Source: a virus (taxonomy: Duplodnaviria; Caudoviricetes). Taken from it: a stretch of DNA of 64,000 bases. Of the stretch, positions 40,042 through 52,918 are shown piece after piece (position 1 is the stretch's first letter; every line of letters starts with the position of its first letter). A program made the position numbers and the translations under genes. The stretch lies in IMG/VR virus record IMGVR_UViG_3300035182_001315. The stretch is one strand, 5' to 3'. Below the pieces are notes generated by a model. It searched no databases. It was not told the origin of the DNA and worked only from the letters and a program-made list of their open reading frames with translations.

Positions 40042-42885
40042 TTAGATATTCTGGAATGAAGCACCAGTGTTAAGGATGTCGAATTCGATTTCGATGAACT
40101 CAAGCGAACGAGTCGGCTTAAGGAAGATTTTACCTGTCAATTCATTTCTGTCGATTTCTTCTGGGTCAGTTGAAAGAACAACTCTGAAATCTGTAAGACC
40201 TCTTTCTGTTCTGATATTATCCAAGATTGGATTAACCAAAGACAAGAACTGGTTTCTTACAACGTTGTCGTTTTGTTCGAACAACAATCTGATAGCCACA
40301 GCAGAAATAAGCTTTCTTGCTTGCAACAACAATCTTCTAACGTTAACTCTGTCAAGAGCTGTGTCAGCAACCTGAAGAGTCTTGTTACCCCAAATCAACA
40401 CACCTTCAGTTGTAAAGGAAGCGATTGGATTGATTCTGTTTTCGTACAAGGTATCTCTTTCACCCTGAGTCAGTTTCTTTCTTGCCTTGATAGCATCAAC
40501 ATTACCTCTGTTAACACCCGCAGTTGCGAACCAAGGGAAAGCGATATTGTCAGTCAAAGCGATGTTTCTTACAACGTCTCTTGTTGGTGGAACGTAAATG
40601 AATACGTTGTTCTCAGCATCCAAGATTTGAATCCAAGGCCAGTAAGTAGCAGTGTAGTTGCTATCAAATTCACCAGAGATTTCGTCTGTTACATCCTGTG
40701 CAGAAAGTACATTTCCAGCACCATCAGTATCAGGAGTTGTTACGATATAAAGTGAGTCAGCTCTGTCAATTTCAACCATTTCGATTGCAGCCTCAACAAG
40801 GTTTGTGTTATCGAATGTATCGATACCCGGAGTTGCAAACACGTTAATGTTTACTGATTCTGGGTTAGAGAATGTCCAGATAGCTTCAAGGTAAGCGTAG
40901 TAATCTGAGTTGATACCCAAGTCACCGTTTGAAAGTGTTCTGTTCTGGAATACACCGCTCAATAAACCTGCCTGACCCTTCACACCATTGATAAGGAATG
41001 AGTCAAGGTTACTTCTTCTTGTTCTGTAGATATCCCAACCATCGAAACCACCGTATGGAGCGAAGGTAAACTTACGAGCGTAAACCTTTTCGTAAGGACC
41101 GCCAACCAAACCAGCTTCAGTTGTGAATACCCAATCACCAGTGTCAAACTTGAATATTGGGCTATATGTTCCGCCTGTTGAATCGATAACAACTTGTACG
41201 TTGTCGATTGTTGCAGCACTTGCATTAACGTCCATGTGGAAACCGTTTGTCATGCCGGTCCATTGGTCATAAGACTGTCCTACTGGAGCACCCTTGTAAT
41301 CGAAGATATCAGCATCGATACCAACAGTATCAGACAAACCTAAGTAGTACTTTCTCTTGTTTTCGAAAGTTCCGTAAGTCTGCTTGTACATAAGGCTTGG
41401 TGATGTTGTACCTGTGTTGCCATTCGCTTGGTAATCTCTGATAGGGAAACCTACGAAACCAGCTGCGAAAGCATCACTTGTGTCTGATGTGTCATCCAAC
41501 TCAACCAAAACGTAGGTTGACTTAGAAGCGTATGTACCATCAAGAGTACCGATTCTTCTCGCAATGTAATTGTTTGAAGTTGGGTCCATTGTACATCTTG
41601 CGTAAGATTCAAGAACAACTGGATTTGCATCTGTGTCATAGAATCCTCTGATATAAACGTCGAACTCTCTTGTATCTGGCTTGATGTTCACGATAGAAAT
41701 CTTGAACTGTTCGTTTGCTGCGTTACCGTCAGAGATGGTCCAGAATCTGAACAATCTAAGAACCTTGTTACCTCTCAATTCAGAAACAACATACGGTGTA
41801 ACCGCTGGCTGATACTGAGTCAAGTAGTCGTTGTAAGCAGTACCGTACTTAACAAGAGTTGAGTTGATACCATAAATTTTACCAGCAGTGTTCAATGAAG
41901 TGAACATGTGGTCGTATAATTCTTCAGCGAAGATTGCAGTTTTACCGTCCTGAGCACCACGTCCCAATACCTTTGGAAGGTAGTTCTTCTGAGTTTTGTC
42001 GAAAGACATTGAGTAATCGAAATTACCAACAGCTGAAGACTTACCAGAAAGGGAGAAGTTACCCAATGGGTTGTTTGTTGCGCCGGTTGCAGCTGGGTCG
42101 AAAATCAAACCAGTTGATGCGCTAACTTGAAATACAGGAACCTGAGTGGTTGCATCCACAGAACCTCTTGAACGCAAGATAGCAACTACCTTACCTTCAA
42201 CGCCTGTGTAACCTGTACCTGCGTAATATGTTGTTGTACCAGTTGTAGAACCAGTGATGAAACCACCGTTTGTACCAACTGAAGATACGTAAAGAGTTGC
42301 AGAAACACCACTGAAGGTAGTTCCGTTCTTTAAGAATGTTTGAGCGATTGTGCTTGTTGAACCTGTTGCAGAAACAGCCAAGTAGTCGAAGCTAATAAGA
42401 CCAGCTGCGAACAACTGACTGATAAGAGATTGATTTGTTGTGATTGAAAGAATGGTTCCACCAGTAGTTGCAGAGAATGTCAACAACGGATTTGCTGTTG
42501 TTGCAGACTGTGTAGTTACTACTGTTGCTGGGTCGATAGCTGCGCTAAGAGTGATACCCCAAGCCTGACCACCGTCATAACCAGAGAAACCAAGTACTCT
42601 TGTAACGAATAACTGGTTTGACTGAGACAAGTAGGATTTAGCGATATATGGAAGTTCATATAATGGAGCGCCGTTTCCGTCTGGTCCGTTTACAAGTGTG
42701 TTGTCTAACCCACCGAAGAAGGATTGAAATTCTCCGTAGTTACCAACGAAGATTGGTTGGAATGCTGGCCCTTGTGTTGTCTCACCCACCAAGCCAAGGG
42801 TTGTTACACCAACCTGACGTGTTACAAATGTGAGGTCTTTTTCAGAGGTATAGACACCCGGACTAACGAATACTTTATCTGCCAT
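40042..42885 (-). CDS. Tail sheath protein (T4 gp18-like)
   Basis: VFVSPGVYTSEKD, GETTQGPAF, FATPGID, ATYWPW, FPWFATAGVNRG, WGNKTLQ...RVNVRRLLL, LFEQND, PTRSLEFI. Confidence 0.95.
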   Translation of the reverse strand: MADKVFVSPGVYTSEKDLTFVTRQVGVTTLGLVGETTQGPAFQPIFVGNYGEFQSFFGGLDNTLVNGPDGNGAPLYELPYIAKSYLSQSNQLFVTRVLGFSGYDGGQAWGITLSAAIDPATVVTTQSATTANPLLTFSATTGGTILSITTNQSLISQLFAAGLISFDYLAVSATGSTSTIAQTFLKNGTTFSGVSATLYVSSVGTNGGFITGSTTGTTTYYAGTGYTGVEGKVVAILRSRGSVDATTQVPVFQVSASTGLIFDPAATGATNNPLGNFSLSGKSSAVGNFDYSMSFDKTQKNYLPKVLGRGAQDGKTAIFAEELYDHMFTSLNTAGKIYGINSTLVKYGTAYNDYLTQYQPAVTPYVVSELRGNKVLRLFRFWTISDGNAANEQFKISIVNIKPDTREFDVYIRGFYDTDANPVVLESYARCTMDPTSNNYIARRIGTLDGTYASKSTYVLVELDDTSDTSDAFAAGFVGFPIRDYQANGNTGTTSPSLMYKQTYGTFENKRKYYLGLSDTVGIDADIFDYKGAPVGQSYDQWTGMTNGFHMDVNASAATIDNVQVVIDSTGGTYSPIFKFDTGDWVFTTEAGLVGGPYEKVYARKFTFAPYGGFDGWDIYRTRRSNLDSFLINGVKGQAGLLSGVFQNRTLSNGDLGINSDYYAYLEAIWTFSNPESVNINVFATPGIDTFDNTNLVEAAIEMVEIDRADSLYIVTTPDTDGAGNVLSAQDVTDEISGEFDSNYTATYWPWIQILDAENNVFIYVPPTRDVVRNIALTDNIAFPWFATAGVNRGNVDAIKARKKLTQGERDTLYENRINPIASFTTEGVLIWGNKTLQVADTALDRVNVRRLLLQARKLISAVAIRLLFEQNDNVVRNQFLSLVNPILDNIRTERGLTDFRVVLSTDPEEIDRNELTGKIFLKPTRSLEFIEIEFDILNTGASFQNI

Positions 42886-42984: not shown

Positions 42985-43395
42985 TTATAAAAGGATTATT
43001 AACGCTATGGATACCACCAACATAGATATCTTCAATATTGCTGAAGCTTTTTCGGCCTTATTAGGAAACCACTTCTGTAACAACTTGTCGGTTTTAGCCG
43101 TAGTTCCCACAAAAAAGAAGGGTTTGTTCAATCCTACCTTGTGAACGATACCGGCGAAGATTGCCCAGAATGCAGAAAGGGAAAGAGGAATGAATTTAGC
43201 CCCAAACGCAAAAAAGGCAGTAAAAGCCAAGTACAGGAATAACCCAGCACCTACTTCATGCCATTCAGCGGAGACTTTATCATTCTCAGGAGTTCCGTCA
43301 GGAATCCTTGCGTCTTTGATTAATAAGGCGTTGTATAAGCCTAAAAGGACTACTCCAATGAGTACCCAGATTGTTCCAAGAATTGTTATAAGCAT
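42985..43395 (-). CDS. Multi-pass membrane protein
   Basis: MLITILGTIWVLIGVVLLGLYNA...; about 4 hydrophobic helices; ATG at 43395 is 1 nt after the upstream stop. Confidence 0.7.
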   Translation of the reverse strand: MLITILGTIWVLIGVVLLGLYNALLIKDARIPDGTPENDKVSAEWHEVGAGLFLYLAFTAFFAFGAKFIPLSLSAFWAIFAGIVHKVGLNKPFFFVGTTAKTDKLLQKWFPNKAEKASAILKISMLVVSIALIILL

Positions 43396-43396
43396 A

Positions 43397-43570
43397 TTAC
43401 TCTTTAGTAATAAGTATCTTGGAATATGACACAGTTCCATCTTTATCAACCTGTTTTATGCGATAATAGACAGTTTTTGGCTGGGTTGGAGTAACAACAT
43501 TCTCTTTTTGGCATTTGAAGCCGATGAATGCGATAAAAAATATTGACAGGAAAATAATAAGCCTCTTCAT
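43397..43570 (-). CDS. Small putative lipoprotein carrying the terminal strands of a T9SS-cargo-type beta domain
   Basis: MKRLIIFLSIFFIAFIGFK-C-QKENVVTPTQPKTVYYRIKQVDKDGTVSYSKILITKE*. Confidence 0.65.
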   Translation of the reverse strand: MKRLIIFLSIFFIAFIGFKCQKENVVTPTQPKTVYYRIKQVDKDGTVSYSKILITKE

Positions 43571-43574
43571 AGTT

Positions 43575-44576
43575 TTAACGGTTAAATGTAAAGTCGTAAG
43601 TAAGGGTCGCAGATGAGTTACCATTTGGAGCCTTGGAGTCGATTTTACCGACAGTGTTGAAACTAATTCCATCTTCACTTCTCTGAACCTCGAAGTAAGC
43701 ATTGTTGGATTCAGATACCGTTGTCCAATGAACAAGGGTAGAGTTTTGTATAGTTCTTAAATAGAAATCACCGAAAGTAATCGGAAGAGGAATACCCTTC
43801 TGATATTGCAACATCCACTCCCACATAGAAAGTCCAGTGGTCGGGCTGTGCCAGTTGATATCTTCATATGTTGTCCAGCAGCAGTGGCCACCCGGATAAA
43901 TCCAAAGCTCAGATGAGTTAGGAAAAAACTGGTTGAACCTTGAGTTAATCCATTTTGTCTGAGTAAGGAAGTCACCATCTTGGTCACCGTCCATACACCA
44001 TGTATGAATCTTTTCAGTAGCCCAAGCCTGTAGCTGAGCATCAGAAGGATTCACGTTTGTAGCGATTGACATTGGTACAGCAGCGGCAAAGTAATGAGTT
44101 AATTCCTGAGAATATGTAAGGGCATCAACAGTTTCCGCACCACCGGCACTAAGGCCATTGATGTAGATTCTGGAAATGTCAACACGGTAGTTGGCTATAA
44201 CCCACTTGATAGTTGCGAGAACTTCTTCAGGTGGCGGAGCCCAATCGTAATGCTGAGTAGCAATTACTATGAAAGAGAATTTCTTCTTGCTGATAGGGTC
44301 CGTGATATTATCAGGACGCATACCGTTTGCAATAAGATTTGGTATTCCTTGATTTAAAAGGATATTAACCGGCCCGAAGGCACCTGCTTCACCTAATCCG
44401 TGTAAAAAAATTACTACAGGATATTTCGTGGTGGAAAAAGGATAATCTGCGGGAAGGTATAAATACCCTTGTAAATTACCAGTGGGATATGGGACAGAAA
44501 CTTGTTGTTGTGGGCCTTGAGCAAAAGAGTAAAACGTTGTTGTAAGGATTGCTAACAATAAGAAAATCTTTCTCAT
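43575..44576 (-). CDS. Secreted alpha/beta-hydrolase (esterase/peptidase) with a truncated C-terminal beta domain
   Basis: Signal peptide MRKIFLLLAILTTTFYSFAQ; VIFLHGLGE; nucleophile elbow NGLSAGG; GDQD; GGHCCW; tail PLPITF...HWTTVSESNNAYFEVQRSEDG...YDFTFNR*. Confidence 0.85.
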   Translation of the reverse strand: MRKIFLLLAILTTTFYSFAQGPQQQVSVPYPTGNLQGYLYLPADYPFSTTKYPVVIFLHGLGEAGAFGPVNILLNQGIPNLIANGMRPDNITDPISKKKFSFIVIATQHYDWAPPPEEVLATIKWVIANYRVDISRIYINGLSAGGAETVDALTYSQELTHYFAAAVPMSIATNVNPSDAQLQAWATEKIHTWCMDGDQDGDFLTQTKWINSRFNQFFPNSSELWIYPGGHCCWTTYEDINWHSPTTGLSMWEWMLQYQKGIPLPITFGDFYLRTIQNSTLVHWTTVSESNNAYFEVQRSEDGISFNTVGKIDSKAPNGNSSATLTYDFTFNR

Positions 44577-44596
44577 ACGTCTTGGTGGTTTTTATT

Positions 44597-45121
44597 TTAT
44601 CTTATCAGTGGTTTGTCAAATAGTTTTTCTAAATCTTTTCCACTGTTATCTTTAACGTACTTAACTGTTGTATCAGATACGTTAGTTATTTTTATGAAGT
44701 CAGCTGGCGCTACGTTTACAGAATTATTAGTTAGTATCGCAGATGAAGCTCCATACTGAGTGAACAAATATACTGCCAGAAGGATATAACATAGCCATTG
44801 GCCACCATTTCCCTGAACAAATATATCAGTTTTGTCCGCCGCACCCAAAATGATAAGGATAACTACACCGCCAACAGCGATATAAGAGATAACCTTTAGA
44901 ATCTTGTGAGCTGGTAATTCCTTAGCTTTTTCCAAAGCCAATTTAGGGGAAATGTCAACACGGTATTCAGCCGGTGCTGATTCGAAGTTGGCTCTCTTTT
45001 GTTCAGAGAAATATGTAACTGGGAACTTGTCGTCTTTCTTAACGATAACTTCAGCTACAAAGATTAATGAGGCAATAAGTGCCAATAATCCGATGATTGC
45101 ATTCTTAATTGGTGTTTTCAT
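44597..45121 (-). CDS. Membrane protein (3 predicted TM helices)
   Basis: Hydrophobic segments near aa 8-26, 76-93 and 109-128. Confidence 0.7.
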   Translation of the reverse strand: MKTPIKNAIIGLLALIASLIFVAEVIVKKDDKFPVTYFSEQKRANFESAPAEYRVDISPKLALEKAKELPAHKILKVISYIAVGGVVILIILGAADKTDIFVQGNGGQWLCYILLAVYLFTQYGASSAILTNNSVNVAPADFIKITNVSDTTVKYVKDNSGKDLEKLFDKPLIR

Positions 45122-45187
45122 AACATTTTTTGTTTATTATAATTATCTTCCAGAAAGTAAAAGGTTAAGCTAATTACCAACAAAATA

Positions 45188-47122
45188 TTAATTCTGGGTC
45201 TCAATATATATTCTGTTTATACCCAAATTGACCGCAGTAGCTCCCGTATTCGCACCATTTGACGCTAAACAAGCTGCAACCATCGGAGTATTAACCGCTG
45301 GTGCATTGATACCAGTAGTTATCGTATTAACAATTGTTGTTCCAGAGTTAATATTATCTAAACGGTACCCGTACACATTAGTATTAGGTGCCATATATAT
45401 CCAAGCAACGTACCCAGTATTGGCAGAAAGTGTCGGCTGGCCACCTATAGCAGTTTTGGTTGATGTACCACCTGAGTTTGACATAAAGCTAATTGCCGTA
45501 TCACCAGAATCGATAATAAATCCGATTGTATTTGTATTTGCAGAGGGATTACCAACAACAATGTTACCCGTGTTGCTCGTAAGTCCAACAAATAATTTGC
45601 TACCGGCTGTCCAAGCATCAAAACCGAACGTACAGAAGAATAAGAATCCACCTCTTCCTGTAACCGAACCTCTGAACCACATGGCATCTGAACTTTTCTG
45701 GCCGACCTGTTGGTTAGTTGTAGTAATTACATTTGCATATCTACCTCTTTTAATTGTTGTATATACTGAAGTATTTGTAGGTAAGCCTAATGAATATGTA
45801 CCAGCACCCGCACCACCCGTACCAATCCAAAGTCCCGTTGAAGAACTCGTTGTTGACCAATATGTAATATTATTTGAAAGAAACGAATCTTGTACATTAG
45901 TTGCATGATTTGAAGAGTTAGTATACTTCAAGTGGTCATAACCACCAGCTGTCTTAGCATACATTCTAACCTGATTGGCTGATGTAGCTGCTGGTTCATT
46001 GGTAATAACCTGAATGTTAATACCAGTATCGGTACCACTTAAGGTAAGTGTGTTCGTTGCGTTGTTCCATGTAAGGTTTGCGTCACCTGCGTAACCAGTA
46101 CCGCCAGAGTTAAATATAAGTTGTCCATTACCTGTGACGTTTGGAAGCATATCATATCTTGTAGTACCTCTTGTAAAATATAATGAAGTGTTGTTGTATT
46201 CAAAAGCTCCAGTTTCTGGAGTATTTAATAAAGCACCACTACCTAACTTTAATGAAGCAGTACCAGCAGCAGTTGTACCACCAGTGATGTGAACCTGAGC
46301 AGTTGGGCCACTCGTACCAAAACCAACAACACCAAGGTCATTTTCACCATAGAACCAAGATACCGTATCGTTAACTCTCAATGCTCTTCTTGAATTCGGG
46401 AACACTAAGAAACCATTTAAAAACCCTGAGAAAAACCCAGCAGATAAAGGAATCGCAGATGAAGTTGTTGTTGTGAATACCGTAGCAATAGCATTAGCAT
46501 TTTCAAGTCTGATAGCGGCTGTGTCATTTACACCCACACCCGTGTTAACAACATGGAAGCCAGCATCTGCACCAGATGTTGCAGCCACCTTTATTCTTTG
46601 ATTAACGGCATCGATTGTATATTTTGAAGTACCAGTTAATGCACCATTTGAATTATATTGAATCTGTGTATCTGTACCACCGGCTGTTACATTAAGATAA
46701 GTTGCGGCGGATAATATACCATTCACTGTTAATCCAGTGAAGTTGTTAACTACGGTTGAGAATGTACCACCAGTGCTATCTTCAATCGCAAGTGTGTTGT
46801 TTGTAAAAGTGGTTGCAGTAACTCTCGTATCAATTGAACCCGGAATACCAGTTAAACCAGCACCAGAACCAAAGAAGGTAGTTGCAGAGATTGTAGTTGC
46901 GGAGACCGTAGGAACAATAAGTGTACCTGTCATGGTATCACCTGTTCTTGCGATTCTATCCCAACCAATTGGAAGAATTGAGTTGGTTGTTGTACCTGAT
47001 GCGTAAAGCTTTACATCAGCTGTGTTAAGGCTTAATTCACCTAATAATAGTGAACCAGCTGCTGGAACCTTTCCAGCTACATTAGAACGTTTAAGAAGAA
47101 AAATATTTTGTCTGTTTGCCAT
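45188..47122 (-). CDS. Tail fibre protein
   Basis: N-terminal LKRSNVAGKVP...LGELSLNTADVKLY fibre-attachment motif; T/S/G-rich; DTQIQYNSNG and FNSGGTGYAGD spacers. Confidence 0.75.
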   Translation of the reverse strand: MANRQNIFLLKRSNVAGKVPAAGSLLLGELSLNTADVKLYASGTTTNSILPIGWDRIARTGDTMTGTLIVPTVSATTISATTFFGSGAGLTGIPGSIDTRVTATTFTNNTLAIEDSTGGTFSTVVNNFTGLTVNGILSAATYLNVTAGGTDTQIQYNSNGALTGTSKYTIDAVNQRIKVAATSGADAGFHVVNTGVGVNDTAAIRLENANAIATVFTTTTSSAIPLSAGFFSGFLNGFLVFPNSRRALRVNDTVSWFYGENDLGVVGFGTSGPTAQVHITGGTTAAGTASLKLGSGALLNTPETGAFEYNNTSLYFTRGTTRYDMLPNVTGNGQLIFNSGGTGYAGDANLTWNNATNTLTLSGTDTGINIQVITNEPAATSANQVRMYAKTAGGYDHLKYTNSSNHATNVQDSFLSNNITYWSTTSSSTGLWIGTGGAGAGTYSLGLPTNTSVYTTIKRGRYANVITTTNQQVGQKSSDAMWFRGSVTGRGGFLFFCTFGFDAWTAGSKLFVGLTSNTGNIVVGNPSANTNTIGFIIDSGDTAISFMSNSGGTSTKTAIGGQPTLSANTGYVAWIYMAPNTNVYGYRLDNINSGTTIVNTITTGINAPAVNTPMVAACLASNGANTGATAVNLGINRIYIETQN

Positions 47123-47184
47123 ATCAATGGGCTTTAATCGATGCCTCTATATAGAGTTATTTTAAAATGGTTATATAACCAAGT

Positions 47185-47982
47185 TTATTCTTTAAATTTC
47201 CAAATAAATCCACCAGCAGATTTTGCCTTCCCGTTACATACTGAACCAACATTACCAAAATTAAATCCATCATCTACTACATTATGTAAACATTCATATT
47301 CCTTTATAAATTCACCTTCTTTTGAAAATTGTAGAACTTTTTTTCTATTCTTAGACTTCTTACCCCACATTGGATTTTTTTCACCCACCTGACGTTCACC
47401 TTTTCTATAGGCTGGGTTATTCTCTCCCTCATTTGCCTTTCTAATCTTATCTTTAACCTCATCTGAATGGTTCCTTCCAAGTTGACCCTTTCTCATATTC
47501 TCTTTGGCCAACTTAGCTTTCTCCTCTCCGAGAAGTTCTTCAAGAGATATACCTAACTTTTTCTTAGAGGCGGTGTCCTTTTGTTCTTGGGTCCATTTTC
47601 TACCGAAGTTTGGATTGTCCTCACCCAACATTTGTTTACCATGCTTAATCTTAACATATTCAGACCATTTTTTATTTAAAGGGTCTTTAAGATTATAGTT
47701 TAAATCAGAATTTATTCCACCATGTTCATTAATCCAAAATATCTCTCTATTATCCAAATCCTCAGTCTCTTCAATAATTTCAAACTTGAAATTATTCTTA
47801 CCATATTTCAAAAATGCCCTTTGTAAATGCTCGTTATGATGAGTATTATTTTCAAGCCTATAAAAATGTTCTCTTTCTCTGTAATTAAGCCTATCTGTCT
47901 GACCAATATAAGTCTTACCATTTATCAGATTCGTTATTTTATAAATCCCCTTCATATAAAAAAAGATGGTTGTTTTATCCAT
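47185..47982 (-). CDS. GIY-YIG homing endonuclease (NUMOD3/NUMOD1)
   Basis: KGIYKITNLINGKTYIGQT...R..EH; NPNFGRKWT, HSDEVKDKI; KVLQFSKEGEFIKEY...GGFIW. Start may be 47955. Confidence 0.92.
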   Translation of the reverse strand: MDKTTIFFYMKGIYKITNLINGKTYIGQTDRLNYREREHFYRLENNTHHNEHLQRAFLKYGKNNFKFEIIEETEDLDNREIFWINEHGGINSDLNYNLKDPLNKKWSEYVKIKHGKQMLGEDNPNFGRKWTQEQKDTASKKKLGISLEELLGEEKAKLAKENMRKGQLGRNHSDEVKDKIRKANEGENNPAYRKGERQVGEKNPMWGKKSKNRKKVLQFSKEGEFIKEYECLHNVVDDGFNFGNVGSVCNGKAKSAGGFIWKFKE

Positions 47983-48029
47983 CTTTTAATAAATATGTAG
48001 AAATATTAAAAAGTAATAAGTTCCACGGT

Positions 48030-50192
48030 TTAGTAGACCCCCCCATCGAGGATGTCAAATTCGGCAAGAACTCTAACACCATTTGGAATAGCTGGGTTTG
48101 TGCTTCTAATAACAATATCATTCAACTGTGTAACCCAAGCTCTGTTAGCAAAACCAACTGAACCAGTGTACTCAGTTACGGATGGAATGTTACCAGCTGT
48201 AAGACCAGTGAAGCCGTTCATCGCTCTGATATCCAAGGTTACTGATGAACCTGAAGTACCTGAACCATCTTGGATTGTCCAACCAGCACCGATAGATGTT
48301 GATGGAGTACCACCCGATGGATTAAAGTTGATTGTGATGTTATTATCTTCAACGTACAACTGTGAAGTAAACGCTGAAATGGTTCCACCCAATACAGTCA
48401 AGTTACCGGCAACAGTTACATCACCAGCACTTATGATACCACCAGAACCAACAGTCAATGAACCAGCTGCTGGAAGAGTCATGTTGGTACCATCAAATAT
48501 CGCCGTACCTGTAATTAACTTACCAGAAGCAGGAGAGCTATAGATAAGTCTATTAGCAGTAAGGTCATTCGCTGTAAGGCCAGAGAAACTTGTCAAGTTG
48601 ACAACCAACGGATTCTGACCATTGTTCTGGTTTACAGAAAGAGCATTTGATGCCGGTGTGTATGTGTAACCAGTTACGAAAGTATCTGATGTTGTAATCG
48701 CTGAAATAGCTGCCAAAACAAAACCACCTGAAGTACCTGAAAGGAACTGATTGGCGAAGTTTGTATTACCCTGATATGTCTTAATCTGACCAAAGATATT
48801 CAAGTCCTGAGTTGCGATAGCAGTAGAAGCGGAAATTGTTGCCGCAGAAACGCTACCAGCAGATACAGTTGTTGAAGTTAAGCCAGCAAAGTTGCTTATG
48901 TTCGTTGTGAACGTACCACCAGTACTGTTTGTAATGGTCAACGTATTGTTAGAGAATGTCGCACCAGTTGCCTTCACATCAACAAGACCTGTGATATTCG
49001 AAGCAGAGATGTTTGTAAGACCAGCACCATTACCAAAGAATGAACCACCTGAAAAGGTAGCACCAGTAACCAATGGAGCAAAAATCGTAGAAGCACCTTG
49101 AATGGTACCACCGGAGATTGTTGAACCGAAGATAGCAGGAGCTGTAACTGAAGTTGATGCGGCAACCGTAGCACCAGAAATTGATGTTGCTAATGCTGTT
49201 GTTGCTGAAAGAATACCGTTAACTGTAAGACCAGTAAAGTTATTTATGGTTGTTGAGAATGTACCACCAGTGCTATTGGTAATCGTCAATAAGTTATTTG
49301 TAAATGTTGCACCGGTTGCCTTCACATCAACAAGTCCTGTGATATTTGCAGCTGTGATATTGGTAATTGCGGCACCATTACCAGCTAAAGTACCACCTGA
49401 AATTGAGGTACCAAGAATTGTTGTACCAGAAACCAACGGCGCAGAAAGAGATATTGAAGCTTGAACTGTTGATGCAGATACTGAAGTAGCCAATGCCGTA
49501 ACCGCAGAGAATGTACCATTTACTGTAAGAGCAGAGAAGTTGTTTATCAATACAGAGAATGTACCGCCAGTATTATTCGTGATTGTAAGTGTATTGTTTG
49601 TGAAGGTACCACCCGTAGCCTTGGTATCATTGATACCTGTAAGGCCAGCACCAGAACCAAAGAACGTACCGCCAGAGAAAATAGGTGACTGAATTGTACC
49701 AGCAGACATTGAAGTAGCCTGTACAGTCGCAGCAGAAAGTGTACCGTTTACTGTTAAACCAGTAACAGCATTGAATGTTGCTGAAAGGGCCGGTTGACCG
49801 TTATTTTGATTAATTGTGAATGTGTTGTTGTTGTAAGTGAAGCCGGTTGTGAAGGTATCGCTTGTTGAAATTTGAGAAATATTTGCAAGCGTGAACCCAC
49901 CTGTTGTACCTGAAAGGAACTTACCCGCAAGGCCAGCACCCGTGACACCTTCATACTGGATGATTCTGTGTCTAAGAGCAAGGTCATAAAGGTTAGAACC
50001 AACTTCAAAGAAAACGGAAGTTGCACCAGAACCAGCCTGAGTCCAACCAGAAGTTGACTGCGTATTACCAGAAAAATATAAGATACCATCGGCTGTATTT
50101 ACGATGGGTTCGCCCAAAGCCAAGGTTGTTGGTAATGGACGAGCAACAATGTTACTGTTTTTTAATATATGGGTGATTGTACGTTTTGCCAT
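48030..50192 (-). CDS. Tail fibre protein with internal repeats
   Basis: N-terminal LKNS...LALGEPIVNTADGILYF; repeats D(T/V)KATGxTFTNNxLTITNxTGGTF...NNF.GLTVNG. Confidence 0.75.
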   Translation of the reverse strand: MAKRTITHILKNSNIVARPLPTTLALGEPIVNTADGILYFSGNTQSTSGWTQAGSGATSVFFEVGSNLYDLALRHRIIQYEGVTGAGLAGKFLSGTTGGFTLANISQISTSDTFTTGFTYNNNTFTINQNNGQPALSATFNAVTGLTVNGTLSAATVQATSMSAGTIQSPIFSGGTFFGSGAGLTGINDTKATGGTFTNNTLTITNNTGGTFSVLINNFSALTVNGTFSAVTALATSVSASTVQASISLSAPLVSGTTILGTSISGGTLAGNGAAITNITAANITGLVDVKATGATFTNNLLTITNSTGGTFSTTINNFTGLTVNGILSATTALATSISGATVAASTSVTAPAIFGSTISGGTIQGASTIFAPLVTGATFSGGSFFGNGAGLTNISASNITGLVDVKATGATFSNNTLTITNSTGGTFTTNISNFAGLTSTTVSAGSVSAATISASTAIATQDLNIFGQIKTYQGNTNFANQFLSGTSGGFVLAAISAITTSDTFVTGYTYTPASNALSVNQNNGQNPLVVNLTSFSGLTANDLTANRLIYSSPASGKLITGTAIFDGTNMTLPAAGSLTVGSGGIISAGDVTVAGNLTVLGGTISAFTSQLYVEDNNITINFNPSGGTPSTSIGAGWTIQDGSGTSGSSVTLDIRAMNGFTGLTAGNIPSVTEYTGSVGFANRAWVTQLNDIVIRSTNPAIPNGVRVLAEFDILDGGVY

Positions 50193-50352: not shown

Positions 50353-50733
50353 TTAGTAGTTTCCACCTATAAGAATATCGTCTTGGATAATTGAGTTGTT
50401 TGCGGTTATTGTTCGTTGGTTACCGTCAGAGTCCAGACCCAAATCCAAGCTGGGTGTTTTCACATAATTGGTAGAGGTCCAGTATGAAGTTGTGCCGCTG
50501 ACAGTATTAAGGTCACGGAATCTTTTGACTGGGGTACCGATGGTATAAATGCCATCATCTTTAGGAACAAGGTTAGAAGAAAAAATAGTAGAACCGCTTT
50601 CCATTACGAACATAGGTTCACCATCACAGTTGAACAATGCGTTGGTGTAAACACCAGTACATGCCGTCCATGTTGCGCTCTCGCCGGTTAAGAAAAGAGG
50701 CTCTATAATGAAGGTCTCATTTACTATACTCAT
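50353..50733 (-). CDS. Small putative structural protein
   Basis: 126 aa; NLVPKDDGIYTIGTPVKRFR resembles a fibre-like segment; overlaps the upstream gene. Confidence 0.55.
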   Translation of the reverse strand: MSIVNETFIIEPLFLTGESATWTACTGVYTNALFNCDGEPMFVMESGSTIFSSNLVPKDDGIYTIGTPVKRFRDLNTVSGTTSYWTSTNYVKTPSLDLGLDSDGNQRTITANNSIIQDDILIGGNY

Positions 50734-51782
50734 AGTGTATTACCAATTAATTGAAAGGTGCCTGTTGTTATATTCGCTTTTGTTACACTGATATTTACTA
50801 CATCACCCTGCTGAATAACCAATGGAACGCCCATTACCAATCCATCAAAAACCGTATTATTGTTTATGTTAATGATGATTCTTGATATATCAACCACGTT
50901 TATCAAGCCGGTGAAGGTGATAGCATATGCTGCGGTGAAGCTGAAGTCTGGGTCAGACCTTGGTTTAAATACGATGGTATATGTAGCGGTATTTCCTTTA
51001 ACAACTGGGTCAAAGATTACATTATGAAAACGCTTATTTTCATCCAATTCAATAAATGCCATACCACGGTTAATTGTTGGAACAACTTCAAAATCCTCTT
51101 CATCCAAGATATAACCCAAAAGAGTCATCTCGAATTGTTGAACATAGAATCTACGATTTTCAAAATCATCAATATTGCTTTCGTCGCTGATGCTTTCCAA
51201 ATGGACCGGCATAGGATGACCATTTACTCCAATATAAGCCTGTCTTGATTGAAAGGTTTTGTGAATCTTACTGTTAAATCTGTTCAAGTCCTTCATTCTG
51301 CCGGTGAAAAGTCTTACTTCATAGGTAATATCAACACTGGTCGGCTGAGGGATTTTATAAAGGTCAACACCCTTTCTTGCACCATCGAAGGTTGGTACTT
51401 TCATGTAAGTATAGGTACGATTACCGGGAATGTTCCAAAGACCCGCTTGGTTTTGACCCACCTGAATGTCAGGTTGTCTAACCACGGTTATGAAAGGCAT
51501 CTTTATGTCTTCGTATTCTGATTCGTCGAACTTCCATGTCTTGGTGAACTCAGTCCATCTTTGAATGGTAAGGAAAAATACAGGAATCTTTCGGCCATCA
51601 AGGGTTATGCTCAGCTCATTCTTCACGAATTCAACAAAGCTCAGGTCCATATCCTCTTCAGAAACGCCCCTTGGCAAAAAGGTTCCCTTATCAGCAATTC
51701 CATCAAGGATTTCCTGTCTACGTGGAACACCAATCTTACTTGGGTGAATATTTATGTCGTTTCTAAAGCCCTTTGGTACCAT
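50730..51782 (-). CDS. Putative tail completion/terminator protein
   Basis: KMPFITVVR...KIPQPTSVDITYEVRLFT...QQFEMTLLGY, next to a neck gene; family assignment is inference. Confidence 0.55.
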   Translation of the reverse strand: MVPKGFRNDINIHPSKIGVPRRQEILDGIADKGTFLPRGVSEEDMDLSFVEFVKNELSITLDGRKIPVFFLTIQRWTEFTKTWKFDESEYEDIKMPFITVVRQPDIQVGQNQAGLWNIPGNRTYTYMKVPTFDGARKGVDLYKIPQPTSVDITYEVRLFTGRMKDLNRFNSKIHKTFQSRQAYIGVNGHPMPVHLESISDESNIDDFENRRFYVQQFEMTLLGYILDEEDFEVVPTINRGMAFIELDENKRFHNVIFDPVVKGNTATYTIVFKPRSDPDFSFTAAYAITFTGLINVVDISRIIININNNTVFDGLVMGVPLVIQQGDVVNISVTKANITTGTFQLIGNTL

Positions 51783-51783
51783 T

Positions 51784-52386
51784 TTATATTATTTTATTGC
51801 TTTTCTTTAAATTATCCTCACCCCATAACGGCTGCAAATTGCTTAATGCGTTTACAACACTCGGATGAGCACCTACATCAAATCTTGAAACCGGATATAT
51901 ATGGTCAATATGCCAATCACCATGATTTTCCCAAGTCATGCCTTCAACGAAAAGAGTTGAGATATAAATTTTGAGTTCGAGAGCTGAATAACCAAGTAAT
52001 TTATCGGTTGTTCCCTCTTTTTTTCTACCCATTCTACTTAAACAGTTGTTTAATAATCCTCTCCATTTATCATAAATTGTTAACTTTCTTGTTAATCTTC
52101 GTTGTTTCTTACCCTTTTCACTTTTATTATAACTTGTTATCGCCGTAATTCTATTCTGACTTTGGTTCCTTAATCGGTCGTATTCTTTTAATTCGGTCGA
52201 TTTTGTATTTCTGTAATTCTTCTGATATTCCGTCACTTTTCCGACATTATTTTGAAAATAAGTCTTTTTTCGTTCTTTGATACCCTCAGGATTTGCGTCA
52301 CGATAAACCTTAACTTTAGCGCAAATTTTTACCTTATTTGCCAAGTAGTATTGTCTATTCATCTCTTTTTTCTCTTCCGGGGTCAT
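51784..52386 (-). CDS. HNH homing endonuclease
   Basis: LGYSALELKIYISTLFVEGMTWENHGDWHIDHIYPVS...NALSNLQPLWGEDNLKKSN; intact. Confidence 0.92.
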   Translation of the reverse strand: MTPEEKKEMNRQYYLANKVKICAKVKVYRDANPEGIKERKKTYFQNNVGKVTEYQKNYRNTKSTELKEYDRLRNQSQNRITAITSYNKSEKGKKQRRLTRKLTIYDKWRGLLNNCLSRMGRKKEGTTDKLLGYSALELKIYISTLFVEGMTWENHGDWHIDHIYPVSRFDVGAHPSVVNALSNLQPLWGEDNLKKSNKII

Positions 52387-52396
52387 GTGTTAATTT

Positions 52397-52918
52397 TTAG
52401 ATTCCTCTGAACTCTGATGAGTCAACCGGCGCACAGATTACGGTTCTGAATGCACCCTTATAACCCACAATTGTGTGTTTGTTATCCCAGTTCTTTTTAC
52501 CGTCATTTACAACGCTAAAGAACCTCATTTCCTTCTCCGTAACCGCATATCCTACATAATCACCGTATCTTATATCTACCTCTTCCTCAGCCAGCTGTGC
52601 TACATAGATTGCGAAGGTAAACTGCCCATCCTGTAAATATCTCCCAGTACCGTTATCGTTGTAAACCTTGTTTTCCGGCTCAGCATGAATCGGAACAACC
52701 TTCAACTCTATAGGCGGCATCCAGCGGATGCCATCTTTCACCGCTTCACCGTAAAGGTCATCAAATTGGCTCATTTGACGGTCTACACGGTAAAGGACTA
52801 TGGTAAAGTTTCCGTCACCTTCAATAGCTTCACGGCCCATTTGGATGTCCAAATTGAAATCTTCCTCTCCGAAGAACTTGTTGCTACGATTGATTGGGGT
52901 GATTTTAGGTGTTGCCAT
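52397..52918 (-). CDS. Putative neck/head-completion protein (T4 gp14-like)
   Basis: DDLYGEAV...PPIELK...GQFTFAIY...DIRYGDYVGY; ATATTTAT upstream. Confidence 0.6.
   Translation of the reverse strand: MATPKITPINRSNKFFGEEDFNLDIQMGREAIEGDGNFTIVLYRVDRQMSQFDDLYGEAVKDGIRWMPPIELKVVPIHAEPENKVYNDNGTGRYLQDGQFTFAIYVAQLAEEEVDIRYGDYVGYAVTEKEMRFFSVVNDGKKNWDNKHTIVGYKGAFRTVICAPVDSSEFRGI

Follow-up and report, generated by a model that had tools for sequence, protein, structure and literature searches.

The 64,000-nucleotide stretch analysed here (the window; IMG/VR record IMGVR_UViG_3300035182_001315, a virus of the Caudoviricetes) carries two adjacent minus-strand genes, encoding an exported esterase (P0001) and a putative lipoprotein (P0002), whose products appear to share a single β-sandwich domain of the fibronectin type III (FN3)/immunoglobulin (Ig)-like kind. 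We propose that the pair probably forms a split lipid anchor, in which the last two strands of the domain, carried by the lipoprotein, complete the fold of the esterase and tether the phage enzyme to the membrane in trans. The two genes and their parts are laid out as follows.

43575-44576, minus strand: esterase gene P0001, 333 residues, from the open reading frame (ORF) and its translation; Sec signal peptide, α/β-hydrolase head and truncated FN3/Ig-like domain
44520-44576, minus strand: esterase signal peptide, residues 1-19, read from the sequence
43803-44519, minus strand: α/β-hydrolase catalytic head of the esterase, residues 20-258, from family matches, alignment and PDB sequence matches
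43578-43793, minus strand: truncated β-sandwich of the esterase, strands A-E, residues 262-333, from alignment with complete domains; strands assigned by homology to the AlphaFold2 (AF2) model of a one-chain tail (below)
43571-43574, minus strand: 4-nucleotide spacer from the esterase stop codon to the lipoprotein start codon
43397-43570, minus strand: hairpin lipoprotein gene P0002, 57 residues
43511-43570, minus strand: P0002 signal peptide (residues 1-19) and Cys20
43475-43510, minus strand: P0002 tether after the cysteine, residues 21-32, beginning Q-K-E-N
43400-43474, minus strand: P0002 strands F and G, residues 33-57, from BLASTP to P0009 and the predicted interface

In BLASTP comparisons with P0009, a 438-residue cellular homologue consisting of an esterase, a complete β domain and a type IX secretion system (T9SS) C-terminal domain (CTD), residues 1-330 of P0001 align with residues 1-324 (44% identity, E = 4e-94) and residues 35-53 of P0002 align with residues 333-351 (12 of 19 identical, E = 3e-6 for the single comparison). 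Because the two phage proteins cover consecutive parts of P0009, they are confirmed at the sequence level to tile one FN3/Ig-like domain, cut in the E-F loop, with only an 8-residue loop missing between them. The first-pass annotation of the window had reported both ORFs at these positions, 4 nucleotides apart, as apparently sharing one split β domain, and the tiling on P0009 bears this out. The esterase tail stops three residues past strand E, where it has no hydrophobic segment, and the T9SS type A CTD family PF18962, present in residues 364-430 of P0009, is absent from P0001 and P0002 at E ≤ 1. Pfam holds no model for the β domain, for which F5/8-type-C-like and similar matches were sub-threshold only.

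The predicted complex of the mature esterase (residues 20-333) with the mature lipoprotein (residues 21-57) scores an ipSAE of 0.81 (0.82, 0.81 and 0.80 in three runs) against 0.02 for the best control; 51 out of 78 solved complexes attained that ipSAE mark, as did 2 out of 108 mismatched pairs. At least 78% of contacts are common to the three runs, and the predicted local distance difference test score (pLDDT) of the partner is no lower than 71. Residues 35-41 of P0002 are predicted to run antiparallel to residues 292-301 of the esterase (strand C), while the second strand of the hairpin would contact residues 264-275 (strand A), the whole predicted interface comprising esterase residues 264-284, 291-303, 306, 308, 319 and 333 and lipoprotein residues 32-57. 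The hairpin is thus predicted to take the place that strands F and G occupy in the one-chain AF2 model, the register expected if the two proteins complete one domain. The earlier suggestion that the last strands have moved onto a lipoprotein and complete the fold in trans is thus supported by this predicted interface and by the recurrence of the split described below, with binding itself a prediction.

From these features we infer lipidation of P0002, its binding to the esterase in vivo and a role of the enzyme at the membrane, with a predicted localisation that would arise as follows. The esterase would be exported by Sec, cut by signal peptidase I to leave an N-terminal Gln, and released in soluble form into the periplasm of an infected Bacteroidota cell, its last domain presenting strands A-E with an open edge. 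The host is probably a member of the Chitinophagaceae, related to Niabella or Flavisolibacter, and not demonstrably the Flavobacterium that had been named at first. The 57-residue protein would be exported separately by Sec and held in the membrane by its acylated Cys20 or, if the Lys at position -1 blocks processing, by an uncleaved signal helix, presenting strands F-G at the end of a tether some 13 residues long. Insertion of the hairpin beside strands C and A would complete the sandwich and leave the esterase membrane-tethered without a T9SS CTD. T9SS cargo is anchored by PorU-mediated attachment to anionic lipopolysaccharide (A-LPS), and it is this attachment that the proposed tether would replace.

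P0002 reads, in order, MKR, 15 hydrophobic residues, a Lys, Cys20, a 12-residue tether and the hairpin T-V-Y-Y-R-I-K-Q-V-D-K-D-G...K-E, the mature protein having 37 residues. An exhaustive profile search of 1.84 billion representatives returned 1957 matches at E ≤ 1e-3, and the sequences examined, drawn for the most part from the 150 best of these 1957, include 58 small lipoproteins of this design. The cysteine is invariant in these 58 and in 45 relatives with both parts of the domain in one chain; position -1 is S, A or G in 51 of the 58 and 44 of the 45, a strict PROSITE-like lipobox pattern is found in 45 of the small members, position +3 is K or R in 53 of 58 and 45 of 45, respectively, and D is commonest at +5/+6. 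The distance from cysteine to hairpin is 14-17 residues across the family, the F-G hairpin is the most conserved part of the small protein, and conservation is higher in the hairpin than in the esterase. The lipoprotein signal originally read in P0002 is therefore canonical for the family, with the Lys at -1 of the window copy departing from it. The first-pass annotation had also pointed to the K/D/E-rich export signal that follows the cysteine in Bacteroidota surface lipoproteins. The lipoprotein export signal (LES) has the consensus QKDDE at +2 to +6 in C. canimorsus (PMC5080379) and was scored here as K-(D/E)2 or Q-A-(D/E)2 within +2 to +6 after the same source, a motif defined in Capnocytophaga and not in Chitinophagaceae. 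The window copy, C-Q-K-E-N, has the Lys at +3 and only one acidic residue, and C-V-K-E-E of the related locus L001 matches the pattern; the likeness of the conserved +3 Lys, which D/E or N follows, to an export signal is a lead, and surface exposure is possible. Another protein, P0250 (218 residues), carries after its signal peptide at least five tandem copies of a 16-residue unit that resembles the hairpin motif, S-Y-T-R-I-G-Q-I-D-N-D-G-T-V-R-N.

Several observations weigh against the proposed anchor. The residue before Cys20 is Lys (G-F-K-C), outside the usual lipobox rule of G, A or S at -1, and seven of the 58 small relatives, the window copy included, are non-canonical at this position. 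The complex score may owe much to the fact that each chain looks like one half of an ordinary Ig-like domain; it supports their register and likeness rather than their binding. The pair was also not found in the searched isolated phages or in IMG/VR: INPHARED phages gave no match by blastn with positions 43000-45200 of the window or by tblastn with P0001, and in IMG/VR no close relative of the esterase was found, the lipoprotein profile search returned none, and a profile scan yielded only three distant esterases of different architecture. It is here that a different function for the same interaction has to be considered, in which the hairpin would complement the domain for control rather than anchoring, as a folding chaperone or timing switch, with the signal helix serving only to reach the compartment. 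The predicted interface and the co-inheritance of the two genes would fit any binding-dependent function, and the atypical lipobox of the window copy leaves lipidation open; the invariant cysteine, the canonical lipobox and +3 Lys of most relatives, and the membrane hairpin of the one-chain form nevertheless point to a lipid anchor, and homologues have the β domain set apart from the catalytic head, while in T9SS paralogues it merely precedes the sorting signal. We consequently regard such a control function as unlikely.

The split recurs in at least eight phage-like loci (the window, L001, L002, L003, L007, L010, L011 and L100), in each of which a gene ending just past strand E is followed by an ORF of 53-59 residues comprising signal peptide, Cys, linker and hairpin; this rule holds in all eight loci examined at the DNA level. 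The three closest esterases (71, 58 and 57% identity) stop at the same point, each followed by an ORF of 53-58 residues with signal peptide, Cys, tether and hairpin, and further loci were found with a profile of the small hairpin proteins. Three heads are paired with the hairpin ORF: an esterase of the P0001 type, esterases of a second lineage (P0133, P0134 and P0289, in L007, L010 and L100) and a 416-residue non-esterase (P0135, in L011), for which a PDB sequence search gave nothing usable. The search for the same two-gene split elsewhere, raised in the first-pass annotation, thus found it not to be unique.

The same loci bear on whether P0002 might instead be an independent lysis lipoprotein, o-spanin-like or similar, that acts with neighbouring membrane proteins, its F-G likeness reflecting ancestry only and the esterase remaining untethered. 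In L001 the 268-residue protein upstream, alone among the neighbours, has weak Rz-like spanin matches (E 0.007-0.03) and the pair lies directly upstream of a PF11860 muramidase; in L100, a 57-kb contig with a CrAss_Ring_2 gene, the pair lies directly upstream of an endolysin of the Amidase_3 family (phrog_435, E 6e-29) together with a small protein of two helices; and in the window and L002 conserved membrane proteins flank the pair. Yet it is precisely in the F-G hairpin that the small protein is best conserved, and the gene directly upstream always encodes strands A-E, even where no lysis genes are recognised (L007, L010 and L011) and where the head is not an esterase; an o-spanin gene would instead lie within, overlap or immediately follow an i-spanin gene. 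P0002 matches no PHROG lysis family, the esterase and the flanking membrane proteins having no PHROG match either, and the complex prediction places P0002 on the esterase. Mature P0002, with no second Cys and little proline, also differs from typical o-spanins of the Rz1 type. Taken together, an independent lysis lipoprotein seems slightly less probable still than a control function.

The junctions between the two genes vary, with spacers of 4, 1, 2 and 3 nucleotides and overlaps of 4, 17 and 4 nucleotides, the window copy of P0002 lying in frame offset +1 relative to the esterase gene. As junction length and frame differ among loci, there is no conserved frame relation and no conserved frameshift or read-through; a programmed event joining the two ORFs was considered and rejected on these grounds, and also because the fusion would bury the signal peptide inside the domain. 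Over the 20 codons of the hairpin, the window and L001 differ by nine synonymous and two non-synonymous codon differences, and the hairpin is thus under purifying selection. Four further assemblies, from different samples, carry the P0002 DNA without a single base change, and a truncated contig of a fifth contains its start; since the same sequence occurs in independent assemblies, the ORF is not an assembly artefact. The recurrence in at least eight loci with three heads, the variable spacing and frame, the purifying selection and the identity among assemblies establish that the split is not decay: that a phage-acquired T9SS-type esterase lost its C-terminus by mutation and left a meaningless downstream remnant would suit the single-gene cellular homologues with complete domain and CTD and the two frames 4 nucleotides apart, but it is already contradicted and most improbable, as the cut point is the same in these loci and a remnant would not gain a signal peptide, a cysteine that never varies and a tether of constrained length. 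The 57-residue gene is uncalled in three of the four public assemblies with the complete locus (L101-L103), one of which has a longer overlapping ORF called instead, and under-annotation of small hairpin lipoproteins of this family is probably widespread.

Dozens of larger proteins (272-721 residues) match the whole profile of the small protein, signal peptide included, at their extreme C-terminus. Their heads are diverse (FG-GAP, PARCEL/leucine-rich-repeat-like and β-helix-like), and the named or examined members are annotated as hypothetical proteins. In alignment A4 the tails run from strands A-E into a hydrophobic helix about 18 residues long, then through a cluster of basic residues such as RRNK or RKKR into a second hydrophobic helix that closes with [S/A/G]-Cys, followed by Lys at +3, a tether of 14-17 residues and the F-G hairpin. 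An AF2 model of such a tail (mean pLDDT 83) has five strands, helices at 81-97 and 99-116 and, beyond a tether without order, two more strands at pLDDT 94-97; Foldseek against the PDB returned only generic FN3/Ig folds for it, at E ≥ 4e-3. We confirmed 391 one-chain tails by tblastn in species-representative genomes; the best 80 of these are nearly all from Niabella (Chitinophagaceae) and all uninterrupted single ORFs (L012-L091), and a Niabella genome carries a dozen or more tail paralogues with diverse heads. In one Niabella gene the tail is broken: at positions 5570-6153 of L008/L009, from Niabella sp. W65 and another assembly, several frameshifts interrupt a gene for an FG-GAP protein and its tail is split between the first transmembrane (TM) helix and the lipobox helix, the second ORF needing a GTG start. 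An intact relative, P0198, is one chain, and the broken gene may be a pseudogene, a split form in a cell or the result of a sequencing error.

A third arrangement is found in lipoproteins of 134-149 residues, which are circular permutants with the signal peptidase II site, Cys, tether and F-G strands first, an acidic and His-rich linker, and strands A-E last. AF2 models a permutant with its hairpin in place at a pLDDT of about 90, which shows that F-G need not be contiguous with A-E. The linker of the permutants in alignment A5 (P0158, P0180, P0190, P0215, P0231 and P0285) comprises 20-30 Asp/Glu/His-rich residues and is possibly metal-binding, and P0165 (213 residues) is a permuted version with an extra domain between the two parts. 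The same end product would thus be reached in three ways: by two genes in the phages, by one chain with TM-basic-TM(lipobox) in the E-F loop in Niabella, and by circular permutation in some small lipoproteins. In the one-chain form, cleavage by Lsp before the Cys would give the same two-chain product; as the phage form has neither the first helix nor the loop, this suggests that both serve only to restart translocation. The membrane hairpin may be a biogenesis device only.

The one-chain form has a catalogued counterpart. In release 20.0 (June 2026) of NCBIfam, NF058595, 'invert_tail', is a curated hidden Markov model for a 'lipo-invert putative C-terminal anchoring domain', and the initial statement that no description of such a system was known thus has to be qualified. 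No paper in the literature searched contains 'lipo-invert' or 'internal lipobox', and broader searches gave no description; the concept is catalogued and unpublished, and the anchoring is putative. Like NF058595, in which a lipoprotein-type signal with Cys at its end interrupts a terminal Ig/FN3-like domain and the post-Cys residues form the last two strands, P0002 has post-Cys residues that align with F-G and a predicted interface with strands C and A, as in the AF2 one-chain tail, and the Niabella relatives follow exactly the order A-E, TM, basic loop, TM-lipobox-Cys, F-G. The phage pair differs in being two genes, with no first membrane helix, no cytoplasmic loop and a tail that is a free-standing 57-residue lipoprotein. 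P0001 and P0002 do not match NF058595 at all; 14 of 30 Niabella one-chain tails match below threshold (best E 9e-5), and the best match in three Niabella genomes (G001-G003) reaches 24.9 bits against the 37-bit cut-off. The Bacteroidota tails thus appear to be divergent relatives or analogues of NF058595, and the phage pair, judged by its sequence, is a natural split variant of the catalogued one-chain anchor; both the two-gene form of the phages and the circularly permuted form are new, as far as can be found.

Bacterial lipoproteins are anchored at their N-terminus; with the lipo-invert design the lipid anchor would come to lie near the C-terminus, and the ordinary Lgt/Lsp machinery would suffice. 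Of this design the phage pair would be a minimal natural version, a soluble enzyme and a 37-residue mature lipopeptide, which implies that the tail works in trans, and it turns a catalogued annotation into a simple two-gene test of the anchor through binding, acylation and localisation. The findings also add Bacteroidota to the range of the module, through Niabella proteins that number in the hundreds and are unannotated, would have phages borrowing a host sorting device, and point to a possible small, portable, non-covalent tag for the display of proteins on membranes.

Comparison with known systems places the pair near several of them. The T9SS type A cargo esterases (PF18962; P0006-P0036, of about 436 residues, from Flavisolibacter and other Chitinophagaceae) have the same head, at 41-47% identity, and the same FN3-like domain family, which in the cargo immediately precedes the sorting signal; in the phage esterase the CTD is missing, the FN3-like domain ends after strand E, and its anchoring would be non-covalent, through the lipoprotein. 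Chaperone-usher and type V (FimA/Mfa1) pili likewise contain Ig-like folds that are incomplete until another polypeptide supplies a strand, the type V pilins being Bacteroidota lipoproteins (PMC5789003 and PMC4789730). Unlike the pilins, to which it has no sequence relation, the phage pair would donate a two-strand hairpin and not one strand, as a 1:1 membrane tether and not a polymer, with no chaperone, usher or gingipain step implied. Mycobacteriophage LysB, a mycolyl-arabinogalactan esterase, and the two-component spanins offer precedents, in which the product of a gene next to that of the endolysin, either an esterase of the phage or a small lipoprotein of the outer membrane, acts on the outer envelope layer during lysis (PMC5707550 and PMC6139136). 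L001 and L100, with the pair directly upstream of an endolysin, resemble this arrangement; the pair differs in having no homology to LysB or Rz/Rz1 and a diderm Bacteroidota host, and its lysis role is suggested by gene neighbourhood only.

P0001 is, on the evidence of its sequence, a serine esterase. Ser143 (in GLSAGG), Asp200 and His231 are invariant across 14 homologues (alignment A1), and PDB sequence matches are to esterases and ferulic acid esterases. The polyhydroxybutyrate (PHB)-depolymerase/feruloyl-esterase type was assessed by TIGR01840, PF10503 and a nucleophile elbow G-x-S-x-G with Asp and His in order; matches to the PHB-depolymerase and esterase families are weak and below cut-off (34 bits against 107.85 for TIGR01840, 47.8 against 150 for NF050058), and a Peptidase_S9 match is just above it (23.9 against 22.6). 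Signal peptidase I is predicted to cut between SFA and QG, leaving an N-terminal Gln that fits the Bacteroidota Q-rule (PMC5837995); in A1 the residues Q20-G21-P22-Q23 vary little or not at all. Among 5.8 billion proteins searched there were 107 esterase homologues, of which the cellular ones, of about 436 residues from Flavisolibacter and other Chitinophagaceae, consist of esterase, complete β-sandwich and T9SS type A CTD (PF18962). A third class in A1 (P0037, P0042, P0043 and P0053), of about 326 residues, has no T9SS CTD, no lipobox and a C-terminal β domain that is shorter and seemingly complete. A distant relative of the esterase head, at 34% identity, forms the C-terminal domain of a 1520-residue protein with Thr/Pro-rich linkers, without β domain or lipoprotein partner, at 158-4720 of L004, an IMG/VR contig of a 236-kb jumbo phage.

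As to what the tethered enzyme would do, we tentatively favour an envelope-directed accessory of lysis, a role that falls somewhat short of probable, since the pair adjoins an endolysin in two unrelated phage contexts and is flanked by membrane proteins in the window and L002. Counting against it, the endolysin lies directly downstream in only two of the eight loci (L001 and L100), no endolysin came up when the window was searched by tblastn with the L001 muramidase, and no lysis genes were recognised in L007, L010 and L011, Pfam scans of their neighbourhoods giving no functional clue. Modification of a host surface polysaccharide or receptor, to which we accord a lower probability, stays a serious alternative because of the loci without lysis genes, the polysaccharide-modifying genes that adjoin one pair, and the relative in the 1520-residue phage protein. 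More speculatively, and doubtful as a whole, the split lipo-invert might hang the esterase on the host outer membrane as an outer-membrane-disrupting lysis factor replacing spanins or LysB, other heads serving in some phages, with all lipo-invert tails being two chains held only by β-sandwich complementation. If the link to the endolysin holds, it would point to outer-membrane handling at lysis by Bacteroidota phages, in which spanins are rarely recognised.

The pair lies in a myovirus structural block, where four tightly packed minus-strand genes stand between the tail sheath gene and a gene for a 644-residue fibre-like protein. The other genes placed in this part of the window are these.

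40042-42885: tail sheath gene (PF04984/PF17482)
42985-43395, minus strand: downstream gene for a 136-residue protein with four hydrophobic segments, its start taken at the Met that matches the L002 homologue
44597-45121, minus strand: upstream gene for a 174-residue membrane protein
47185-47982: GIY-YIG homing endonuclease gene

The 136-residue gene begins 1 nucleotide past the lipoprotein stop codon; its product, called at the same length in other assemblies, has 68% identity to P0113 of the related phage L002, and the 174-residue membrane protein has 57% identity to P0115 of the same phage (tblastn). Searches of Pfam and PHROGs gave no family match for either, and the 174-residue protein belongs to the cassette and not demonstrably to the anchor. 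Positions 45188-50192 of the window vary between relatives, L002 being without the 644-residue fibre-like, GIY-YIG endonuclease and 720-residue genes; in that phage, homologues of the window genes at 50730-52918 adjoin the four-gene cassette directly.

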